DNA of 64,000 nt from Candidatus Limnocylindria bacterium. GTDB lineage: Bacteria > Chloroflexota > Limnocylindria > P2-11E. The stretch is taken from the NCBI GenBank assembly GCA_036523395.1, contig DATDEH010000021.1, forward strand, positions 2,175-66,174, read 5' to 3'. Below the pieces are notes generated by a model. It searched no databases and had not been told where the DNA came from. It was given only the letters and a program-made list of their open reading frames with translations. Within the stretch, counting starts at the first letter, position 1. Each line of letters opens with the position of its first letter. This document shows positions 53,600 to 56,152 of the stretch, piece by piece. A program made the position numbers and the translations under genes.

Positions 53600-55579
53600 A
53601 TGGCCACCCTCGCACGTCGCGTCGGTCTGGGTCTCAATGCACGCGGTGACGTTTCGGACGTCGTGGCTTGGGCCGAGCGTGCTCGCTCGGCGGGTCTCGA
53701 GTCCATCTGGATCCACGACTCCTACTTCGAGCGCGACGCCGTCACCTATGCGAGCGCGGTCGCGGCGCAAGTAGCGGACATCAAGATCGGCCTCGGCGCG
53801 CTCAATCCGTTCACCCGCCACCCCGTGCTCATCGCGATGACGATCAGTGCGCTCGACGAGATGGCGCCCGAGAGGATCCTTCTGGGAATGGGATCGGCGC
53901 TCCCGCTGCGCCTCGGGCAGATGGGCATCCCGTACACGCCCGAAGACGCCGTCACGAAGTCGAGCGAGGCCATCGACACGCTGCACACCCTGTGGAAAGG
54001 CGAGCGGATGCCTTCGGGAAAGCCGGGCCTGCCGCCGCTGCAGCCGATGTTCCCGCCGGTCCATCGTGTGCCGATCTACCTCGCGGGCTACCGCTCACCG
54101 GTGATGGAGCTCGCGGGTCAGAAGGGCGACGGGTATCTGGCGCGACCCGCCGAATCGATCCCCGGGCTGAAGAAGCTCCTGCGGGTGATGAACAAGGCGG
54201 CGCGTGCGGCGGGTCGCGATCCGAACGACATCGACGTCGCGGGTTACCTGCTCGCGCTCGTCGGCGACACGCGGCGCGACGCACTCAACCGCGCGAAGCG
54301 CGAGCCGTTCGTGATCTTCATGATGAGCATCCTCTCGGACGTGACCCTGGACCGCGCCGGCTTCGAGCCCGAGCTGCGCGACCGCATCGCGGTGCACTGG
54401 CGCAAGGAGGATTACACGACGGCGGGCGGGCTCATCCCCGACGAGCTCCTCGACGCGTTCATCGTCTGCGGAACGCGACGCGAGATCGCGGATCGGGCCT
54501 GGGAGTACCACGAGGCAGGTATGGACCTTCCGATCCTGCAGCCTGTCGTTCAGGACGAGGACCAGATCTCAGCGGTCCTCGATGCCGCTGTCGCGTATGG
54601 CAGCGGCGAGGCCGGGACCGTCGCGGCCCGCGCCGCGCTCGGCGCGCAGAAGAGGAGCGCGGCGGCGAGCCTGCGCGACCGCATCGGCGCGTACTGGGAG
54701 ATCGCGCGTCCGTTCTCGTTCACGGCGTCGACCGTGCCGACCGCGGTGGGCGGCGCGCTCGCCGCGGTGGAGGGCCGGTTCGACTGGACGCTGTTCCTCG
54801 TCTCGCTCGTCGCCGGCGTCCTTCTGCACATCGGGACCAATGTCACCAACGAGATCTACGACGTGCGCAAGGGCGTGGACACGATCGTCTCGCCGCGCGC
54901 GAGCCACGCGATCGTGAAGGGACGCATCAGTGACCGTGAGGCGTACGTCGCGGCCGTCGCCGCGTTCGCGCTCGCCTTCACACTCGGCCTGTTCCTCGTC
55001 TCGGTCCGCGGCTGGCCGGTCGTCGCGCTCGGGCTCGCCGGCCTCATCGGCGGCTACACCTACACCGCGCCGCCGTTCCAGTACAAGTTCAGCCCCTACG
55101 GGATCCCGCTCGTGTTCATGCTCATGGGTCCGCTGATGGTCGTGGGGTCGTACTTCGTCATCACCGGCACGATCGACTGGAGCGCGCTCGCGATCAGCAT
55201 CCCGGTCGGGTTCCTCGTTGCGGCGATCCTGCACGGCAACGAGTGGCGCGACATCAGCGAGGACGCGCGAGCGGGTGCGCGAACCTTCTCGGTCCGGATG
55301 GGCCGGCAGGCGGCGCACTGGCTATATCTCGCGCTGGTCGTCGGCGCGTACATCGCGCTCACGGCCGCGGTCCTCGTGGGCCTGCTACCGACGTGGACGC
55401 TGCTCGCGATCCTCTCGCTGCCGCTGCTCGTGCGCCAGATCCGCAGCGCGGAGTTCGGAGCGAGCGGTCAGCAGCGCGCCATCGCGATGATCGACCTGCA
55501 GACCGCACAGCTCCACGCGGCGTTCGGCTACCTCATGGTCGCGGGGCTGATCATCGCGGCGGCCATCGCGACCCGCTGA
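53600..55579 (+). CDS. Fusion of LLM-class (Mer-like) oxidoreductase and MenA/UbiA-family prenyltransferase
   Basis: About aa 1-335: WIHD, KIGLGALNPFTRHP, PIYLAG. From about aa 360: RPFSFTAS, NVTNEIYDVRKGVD, YTAPPFQYK, NEWRDISEDARAG. One uninterrupted ORF. Confidence 0.88.
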   Translation: MATLARRVGLGLNARGDVSDVVAWAERARSAGLESIWIHDSYFERDAVTYASAVAAQVADIKIGLGALNPFTRHPVLIAMTISALDEMAPERILLGMGSALPLRLGQMGIPYTPEDAVTKSSEAIDTLHTLWKGERMPSGKPGLPPLQPMFPPVHRVPIYLAGYRSPVMELAGQKGDGYLARPAESIPGLKKLLRVMNKAARAAGRDPNDIDVAGYLLALVGDTRRDALNRAKREPFVIFMMSILSDVTLDRAGFEPELRDRIAVHWRKEDYTTAGGLIPDELLDAFIVCGTRREIADRAWEYHEAGMDLPILQPVVQDEDQISAVLDAAVAYGSGEAGTVAARAALGAQKRSAAASLRDRIGAYWEIARPFSFTASTVPTAVGGALAAVEGRFDWTLFLVSLVAGVLLHIGTNVTNEIYDVRKGVDTIVSPRASHAIVKGRISDREAYVAAVAAFALAFTLGLFLVSVRGWPVVALGLAGLIGGYTYTAPPFQYKFSPYGIPLVFMLMGPLMVVGSYFVITGTIDWSALAISIPVGFLVAAILHGNEWRDISEDARAGARTFSVRMGRQAAHWLYLALVVGAYIALTAAVLVGLLPTWTLLAILSLPLLVRQIRSAEFGASGQQRAIAMIDLQTAQLHAAFGYLMVAGLIIAAAIATR

Positions 55580-55643: not shown

Positions 55644-55844
55644 TCATTGACGCTCAGCGACCGACTGAAGTGCGCCGTCGGCCGCCCGCAGCAGCTCGAC
55701 GCATCGCTCGGCGAGCTCGAGCGCTTCTTTCGAGGCGCATCCCGAGCGCGACGCGAGCTGTAGGGCGTTGAGCGCGTGGCGGTAGAGCGATCGTTGGACG
55801 GCGTGGTTGTCGCATTCGCTGTCGCAGCACTTCTGACTGGCCAT
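55644..55844 (-). CDS. Small Cys/His-rich protein (66 aa)
   Basis: Strong GGAGGAG RBS; MASQKCCDSECDNH...HAL...GC...RC. Confidence 0.65.
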   Translation of the reverse strand: MASQKCCDSECDNHAVQRSLYRHALNALQLASRSGCASKEALELAERCVELLRAADGALQSVAERQ

Positions 55845-55876
55845 CGGTCTCCTCCCTTCGCCGTGTTTTGGTCCAG

Positions 55877-55908
55877 AAAACAAAAACGCCACGGGAGGAG
55901 CCCGTGGC
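55877..55908 (-). terminator. Intrinsic terminator upstream of the Cys-rich gene (putative attenuator)
   Basis: Perfect 8-bp stem GCCACGGG/CCCGTGGC followed by GTTTTTGTTTT on the minus strand. Confidence 0.78.
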
Positions 55909-55939
55909 CATACAGCGCCGTGAGCGTGCGTCTACAGCG

Positions 55940-55987
55940 CTAGCCCGAGCTCGCCTCCCGCGTTGATGCGATGAACGGAACGGTCAT
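55940..55987 (-). CDS. Putative leader peptide (MTVPFIASTREASSG)
   Basis: AAAGGAGAG RBS before ATG 55987; stop about 30 nt before the terminator stem. Confidence 0.45.
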   Translation of the reverse strand: MTVPFIASTREASSG

Positions 55988-56152
55988 CAACTCTCCTTTC
56001 TCGCGCTCCGATGCGCGAAGGACGCAGATGTACCAGAGGCGCGCGCGGAACACAAGAGGGATTTCCACATTTCGTGCACGGCGATACGCCCACCGATGCG
56101 ATCGCCGCGCGGCGATACTTCCTCAAGTGCCTCCAGCAACAGGAGACCGAGC

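Follow-up and report, generated by a model that had tools for sequence, protein, structure and literature searches.

The 66-aa Cys-rich orphan protein encoded on the minus strand of the window (the whole stretch of 64,000 nucleotides analysed here) is probably under the control of a ribosome-dependent leader-peptide transcription attenuator, possibly with an added translational layer. A short upstream ORF (uORF) with an SD sequence and a start codon lies between the promoter and the gene, and an intrinsic terminator lies upstream of the gene; the third hallmark of the attenuator class, a mutually exclusive antiterminator that depends on the position of the ribosome, is present in silico. Together, these elements make up a self-contained module of ~250 nt. 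The preliminary description had placed on the minus strand, in this order, a strong SD, a 15-aa ORF, an 8-bp terminator with a U-tract, about 20 nt of sequence, a second SD and the 66-aa gene, and we found all of these elements at the positions that it gave. The features of the window locus, all on the minus strand, are as follows; nucleotide n of the leader corresponds to window position 56027 - n.

56064..56069, minus strand: TGTGGA motif, putative transcription-factor site, 8 nt upstream of the -35 hexamer
56055-56050, minus strand: -35 hexamer TTGTGT, followed by a 17-nt spacer to the -10 hexamer
56032-56027, minus strand: -10 hexamer TACATC (sigma-70-like promoter spanning 56027..56055)
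~56020, minus strand: predicted transcription start
55994..56022, minus strand: P1, 5' hairpin (UCGCGC:GCGCGA and UCCU:AGGA), ending in or next to SD1
55999-55993, minus strand: SD1, AAAGGAG
55964..55991, minus strand: hairpin sequestering the uORF start codon, GUUGAUG (55991-55985) paired with CAUCAAC (55970-55964)
55987-55940, minus strand: uORF of 15 codons, MTVPFIASTREASSG, with ATG at 55987-55985 and stop codon TAG at 55942-55940
55942..55962, minus strand: antiterminator 5' strand, CGCGGGAGG-cg-AGCUCG-GGCU, identical to uORF codons 9-15 and the U of the stop codon
55914..55941, minus strand: P2 hairpin, AGCGCUGU:ACGGCGCU, apex of the antiterminator, beginning with the last two bases of the stop codon
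55908-55888, minus strand: intrinsic terminator stem-loop, GCCACGGG-CTCCT-CCCGTGGC as DNA (3' arm CCCGUGGC in RNA), with 8 pairs, 7 of them G-C, and a 5-nt loop
55887-55877, minus strand: sequence after the stem in the terminator scan, GTTTTTGTTTT, with the U-tract GUUUUUGUUUU
55856-55849, minus strand: SD2, GGGAGGAG, ~20 nt after the U-tract
55839..55856, minus strand: segment with SD2 and AUG, GGGAGGAGACCGAUGGCC, complementary over 16 bp to the terminator region 55909-55893
55844..55644, minus strand: monocistronic gene of the 66-aa Cys-rich orphan protein, ATG at 55844

Architecture and distribution of the module

The promoter in the window was missed by a strict consensus scan, and the pattern TTGyrt-N17-TACAnn is kept at all loci that carry the uORF. 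Of the 39 distinct promoter regions of the module, 35 carry the sequence TGTGGA(A/G)A at a distance of 7-9 nt before the -35 hexamer, and this conservation suggests extra control at the level of transcription initiation; the motif is a candidate transcription-factor site, possibly common to the upstream region of the divergent CPBP protease gene. Further downstream, P1 folded in most of 45 distinct 5' leader segments, and the base of its stem, which is poorly aligned, shows by eye the compensatory variants CUUCG:CGAAG and CUUCA:UGAAG. The hairpin that contains the uORF start codon uses partner sequences that vary by clade (e.g. GCGAUGGCGU:ACGUCAUCGC in L017), and in 29 of 45 distinct leaders the local MFE structure has the start codon paired. 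The Rfam 15 covariance models gave zero matches in positions 55800-56100 of the window, even at E <= 10.

Genome and metagenome scans yielded 70 loci and, among them, 51 distinct leaders, which derive from metagenome-assembled genomes of Candidatus Limnocylindria or Chloroflexota and from soil metagenomes; the host of the module is uncultured and represented by metagenome-assembled genomes only. Of 61 related genomes, 10 encode the 66-aa protein. A covariance model built on the core of the module had hits in 12 of the 301 genomes of the class, one in each; these genomes, the window's own among them, belong to 2 of 57 genera, and all 12 places that could be matched to the earlier loci are at the small-gene locus. 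Among the 61 genomes searched, the small gene and its leader occur in 9 of the 26 from the window's own genus and in 2 from other genera, the pattern of a patchy accessory module and not of a core gene. At one locus (L077:2001-2156), the terminator is kept without SD2 and the first codons of the small gene, and this locus resembles a decayed copy.

No Pfam or NCBIfam family matched the 66-aa protein. Its close homologs number 57, and a profile search of 1.84 billion proteins recovered 7 representatives; among the homologs, C11 and C36 never vary and C7 and C48 hardly do. AlphaFold2 predicted a two-helix hairpin (pLDDT 73), for which Foldseek against the PDB returned only generic helical hairpins, none of them significant (E >= 0.9). 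With neither a family match nor a significant structural neighbour, nothing marks the downstream gene as a resistance determinant, and biosynthetic enzymes of the kind found downstream of amino-acid attenuators are absent, the gene being a monocistronic orphan. In the window, it is flanked by a divergent gene for a CPBP/Rce1-like protease and by a convergent gene for an LLM-type oxidoreductase-UbiA fusion. We note that the latter, at window positions 53600-55579 of the plus strand, is one ORF of 659 aa, consisting of a luciferase-like (F420-type LLM) oxidoreductase and a UbiA/MenA-type prenyltransferase, and is conserved within the genus. The neighbours of the small gene are conserved within the genus only; outside it, genes for ProC, peptidase A4, an FMN-dependent dehydrogenase or YjeF_N take their place, and no conserved partner gene was found near the distant loci. 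Because the neighbours change while the leader stays, leader and gene travel as a unit.

The uORF and its pairing with the terminator

In the ORF listing of the window, the uORF is nested in a longer frame that starts with GTG. The preliminary description had proposed conservation of the peptide in relatives as a check, and for the short ORF the outcome was positive: SD, start codon, frame and stop position are kept in 51 of 51 diverged leaders, all of which have an SD, an ATG or TTG start and a uORF of 12-18 codons. The spacing between SD and start codon is 4-6 nt in every leader type inspected by eye, and the stop codon lies 24-31 nt before the terminator in all 51 leaders and exactly 31 nt before it in most. 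The distance from the uORF start to a conserved GAG is 21, 24, 27, 30, 33 or 39 nt and, therefore, always a multiple of 3, so that the frame is retained across six different uORF lengths. An SD with a start codon and an ORF of 11-20 codons ending 24-31 nt before the terminator occurred in 0.2-0.7% of dinucleotide shuffles per leader. All uORFs end in UAG or UAA; the lack of UGA was considered as a hint of RF1 dependence and dropped because TAG is frequent in this genome, the long ORFs in the window using TAG 17 times, TGA 15 times and TAA twice.

The encoded peptides are less telling. Codon-position entropy in the uORF (0.34, 0.44 and 0.48 at positions 1-3) is a weak signal, 15 of 40 changes are synonymous compared with about 28% expected, and neither the codon-position nor the synonymous/nonsynonymous analysis gave a clear coding signature. 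As the preliminary description had stated for the window, there is no run of regulatory codons, and the comparison of leader peptides bears this out in that no residue is consistently repeated across them. Thr or Ala is common at positions 2-4 of the leader peptides, and no defined drug-dependent stall motif was recognised. We also observed that the N-terminal halves of the leader peptides (window positions 55987-55964) are all rich in V, I, F, Y, L, A and T despite unrelated nucleotide sequences, and the peptides, including those of a divergent clade described below, stay hydrophobic in this half; the residue bias may stem from the start-codon hairpin, from U-rich codons or from a function at the peptide level. 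Judged from these comparisons, the peptide sequence is weakly constrained, and RNA pairing accounts better for the conservation of the uORF; in our reading, selection maintains the RNA pairing and a frame that can be translated and has a fixed geometry, and does not act on the sequence of the peptide.

The folding energy of the terminator is -16.4 kcal/mol and was reached by none of 200 shuffles; the stem CCACGGG/CCCGUGG and the T-tract show little or no variation among the 51 leaders, even where the proteins are only 62-67% identical. In its loop and 3' arm (CUCCUCCC), the terminator resembles an anti-SD sequence. From the whole-leader alignment, RNAalifold retrieved this invariant terminator alone, since P1, P2 and the antiterminator are misaligned or in competition; conservation of pairing was scored by pair counts for the named structures in place of RNAalifold.

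The preliminary description had proposed that CGCGGGAGG (55962-55954) pairs over 9 bp with CCTCCCGTG (55898-55890) in the terminator loop and 3' arm. This pairing is exact and present in the MFE fold of the transcript up to the terminator, and it is part of a larger structure: the antiterminator comprises 19 bp over the entire terminator and is capped by P2. Its 5' strand pairs with 55909-55890 in the MFE structure of the transcript up to the terminator by the following helices.

Leader nt 65-73 with 129-137: CGCGGGAGG with CCUCCCGUG, the helix of the preliminary description
Leader nt 76-81 with 123-128: AGCUCG with CGGGCU
Leader nt 82-85 with 118-121: GGCU with GGCC
Leader nt 86-93 with 106-113: P2 5' arm with P2 3' arm, capping the antiterminator

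Accordingly folded, the window transcript to the end of the terminator is one long irregular hairpin of -67.0 kcal/mol and not the terminator, which, if enforced in the same transcript, gives -55.8 kcal/mol; the isolated segment with antiterminator and P2 has an energy of -46 kcal/mol (z = -3.8). Because the 19-bp antiterminator stacks with P2 on one helix, the 5' arm of the terminator could be captured as it emerges, before the 3' arm exists, and such early capture would remove the kinetic objection to the 9-bp version, which touches just the loop and the 3' arm.

The pairing is conserved in relatives, as the preliminary description had asked to be checked: in the 44-sequence core alignment, for 40 distinct main-clade leaders, 93.7% of antiterminator cells are paired versus 40-50% with slid partners. 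On the uORF side, 32 cells carry one of three substitutions: A to G at the first or C to U at the third position of codon 13, or U to C at the first position of codon 14. Pairing is intact in every one of these cells, even though two of the three substitution types replace Ser, by Gly or by Pro. The 2-nt unpaired bulge (codon 12 positions 2-3) contains the most variable sites of the 3' half of the uORF. There are no true double compensatory changes in the antiterminator, and none are possible because the terminator side never varies. In P2, by comparison, both sides change at 6 of 8 pairs across the 51 leaders; six leaders have A-U in place of G-C where the third stop-codon base meets its P2 partner, a change that converts UAG to UAA and preserves both the pair and the stop.

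These observations also bear on the idea that the switch is real but set by a factor or ligand acting in trans (a metabolite, temperature, or a protein such as the 66-aa product regulating its own synthesis) on P1 and the start-codon hairpin, with the uORF incidental or modulatory. The weakly constrained peptide, the conservation of the 3' half of the uORF that tracks RNA pairing, and a uORF start codon often buried in a hairpin would all agree with this idea, and P1 and the invariant terminator sequence could be protein-binding sites. However, an incidental uORF does not explain that the SD1-start spacing, the frame and a UAG or UAA stop with a compensatory partner are kept across diverged leaders or that the stop codon is fixed 31 nt from the terminator; moreover, just ~64 nt lie upstream of the antiterminator, and Rfam provided no match. 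We regard this explanation as improbable.

Modelled switching and the proposed mechanism

To describe the balance between the alternative structures in the 51 leaders, we used the energy difference between the non-terminator and the terminator state (non-terminator minus terminator, in kcal/mol); kinetics and ribosome dynamics are outside these energy models.

Free RNA: median -5.2; non-terminator favoured in 44 of 51 leaders, terminator in 7 of 51
28-nt ribosome footprint at the stop codon: median +6.7; non-terminator favoured in 7 of 51, terminator in 44 of 51
Ribosome held at codon 3: median -7.0; non-terminator favoured in 45 of 51, terminator in 6 of 51

In the models, a ribosome at the stop codon tips the balance to the terminator, which is the behaviour needed for ribosome-mediated attenuation. 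The reading of the leader as such an attenuator in the preliminary description is, therefore, supported by the conservation of uORF and pairing in relatives together with the preference for the terminator under a modelled stop-codon ribosome. Dinucleotide shuffles of the segment from uORF to terminator matched the observed value in 0-4 of 100 trials for 10 of 12 leaders; these ten include L020, in which the terminator loop is UUUG and the antiterminator uses a different register. For the remaining two, L021 and L072, the observed energy difference was no different from that of the shuffles. Both belong to the divergent clade (L021, L066, L071, L072, L074), in which we sought an antiterminator and found nothing significant above shuffles, and in which no anti-SD pairing was detected. 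Leaders of this clade have uORFs of 12 aa (MVFTLAIEVTSA, MLVYIATEVRSG), terminator loops GAA, GUA, UUG or UUA in place of CUCCU, and a duplicated -10-like CTACAAC.

Sequence of high GC content yields many open frames and G-C pairings, and a short ORF and complementary segments might merely happen to lie near an ordinary terminator. Given that the elements are kept in 51 distinct leaders from two genera and varied contexts, and that shuffle controls fail to reproduce them, we consider coincidence hardly credible.

The terminator region has a third partner. Its loop CUCCUCC, together with the 5' arm, can sequester SD2 and the AUG of the 66-aa gene, and for the full-length leader of the window this SD-sequestered state is the MFE structure (-102.1 kcal/mol, compared with -94.7 kcal/mol for the antiterminator state and -89.9 kcal/mol for the terminator state). 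It is part of the MFE structure in 31 of 51 leaders and in 0 of the leaders with other terminator loops. This prevalence would fit an arrangement without regulated switching, in which a constitutive short transcript (a micropeptide gene or a small RNA) is made, the 66-aa gene owes its expression to constant, leaky readthrough or to an overlooked start site, and the terminator region is mainly an SD-sequestering translational element. The hydrophobic N-terminal half of the uORF peptides, retained even in the divergent clade, would suit a micropeptide, and one clade retains the hairpin without the uORF. Specifically, members of this clade (L018:2400-2520; L051, L057-L060, L062) have a proC-like gene upstream in divergent orientation and have lost the uORF together with the -10 hexamer, P1 and the 5' arm of P2; they keep the anti-SD/SD2 pairing and the terminator hairpin, the latter weakened by a G-to-A mismatch in the stem (-10.1 versus -16.4 kcal/mol); the weak terminator fits a need for relief once the antiterminator is gone. 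What speaks against an unregulated arrangement is the 19-bp complementarity between uORF and terminator, which is conserved, exceeds that of shuffles and would be needless for a stand-alone terminator. In addition, the U-tract is conserved, and the 20-45 nt from the U-tract to SD2 vary across leaders and contain no conserved promoter. On balance, we give this arrangement little weight.

Returning to attenuation, we infer a mechanism in which the translation of the uORF, the order of co-transcriptional folding, the direction of regulation and the nature of the signal are as follows. Transcription would begin ~7 nt past the conserved -10 hexamer. If the 3' half of the uORF is free of ribosomes, codons 9-15 and the U of the stop codon would zip onto the emerging terminator region, starting at the base of the pre-formed P2 and capturing the 5' arm of the terminator before the 3' arm is synthesized; the 19-bp antiterminator would then form, RNA polymerase would read through, and SD2 would be free. 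If, by contrast, a ribosome is on codons ~7-15 or at the stop codon, its footprint would hide the 5' strand of the antiterminator and the 5' arm of P2; on a leader covered in this way, with the stop codon at the fixed distance of 31 nt, the terminator hairpin would form and transcription would end at the U-tract. RNA in the terminator state that escapes termination is predicted to refold such that the CUCCUCC loop and the 5' arm sequester SD2 and AUG, silencing translation. Thus, expression of the 66-aa gene would increase when initiation or early elongation on the uORF fails. Candidate inputs are translation stress, a stalling compound, or control of the uORF start-codon hairpin; as most leaders have a paired start codon in their local MFE structure, inputs could act on initiation at the uORF, and they could likewise act on early elongation.

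A more specific version of this mechanism, which we put forward as a speculation with rather less than even prospects, treats the terminator region as a three-way switch that pairs with the 3' half of the uORF, with itself, or with SD2 and AUG. The module would then be a dedicated sensor of translation capacity that fires a lineage-restricted Cys-rich mini-protein upon failed ribosome loading or an early stall, and each readthrough mRNA would be silenced anew as soon as a ribosome goes on to translate its uORF for the first time.

Relation to known attenuators and implications

In the trp-type attenuators of E. coli (trp, his, leu, thr, pheA), region 2 is covered and the terminator forms once a ribosome has arrived at the stop codon of the leader peptide. 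As in these systems, an SD and a short ORF close to the promoter of the module precede antiterminator and terminator helices that exclude each other; likewise, a ribosome at the stop codon would cover the 5' strand of the antiterminator, and the antiterminator is predicted to capture the 5' arm of the terminator. However, the module is without a run of cognate codons, its downstream gene is not biosynthetic, its terminator loop doubles as an anti-SD sequence, and there is no sequence homology. Moreover, no anti-antiterminator corresponding to the region 1:2 hairpin was found in the module and, therefore, the prediction for a leader without translation is readthrough and not super-attenuation.

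The leader of vmlR in B. subtilis combines a uORF, an antiterminator with an apical hairpin, an intrinsic terminator and an SD-sequestering hairpin and uses both transcriptional and translational attenuation (PMC9226507). In the module, as in vmlR and the related antibiotic-responsive uORF attenuators of msrD, yxjB and bmrCD, early stalling of the ribosome would favour the antiterminator. The vmlR uORF has 3 residues and lies in a separate anti-antiterminator hairpin, whereas in the module the 3' half of the uORF is itself the antiterminator strand; also unlike vmlR, the terminator of the module is itself the SD-sequestering element, and, unlike in this group as a whole, the regulated gene encodes an orphan 66-aa protein without a link to antibiotic resistance. 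Attenuators of the ermC and cat type act by translational attenuation only and depend on defined drug-dependent stall motifs. In these systems as in the module, a leader peptide and alternative helices would decide on the exposure of the downstream SD, but the module centres on a canonical intrinsic terminator whose U-tract is conserved. The module is most likely a well-supported further case of a known type of regulation, i.e. ribosome-mediated attenuation.

To our knowledge, leader-peptide attenuators have been worked out almost wholly in Proteobacteria and Firmicutes and for amino-acid operons and antibiotic-resistance genes, and our search of the literature for leader-peptide attenuation in Chloroflexi found no paper. 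The module described here adds a probable attenuator from an uncultured class of soil Chloroflexota that is absent from Rfam, lacks regulatory codons and guards an orphan mini-protein. Its 51 natural variants and one natural deletion variant constitute a mutational series that supports the alternative folds. We suggest that the module could reveal how these bacteria sense translation stress and could provide a first handle on the role of the Cys-rich protein.
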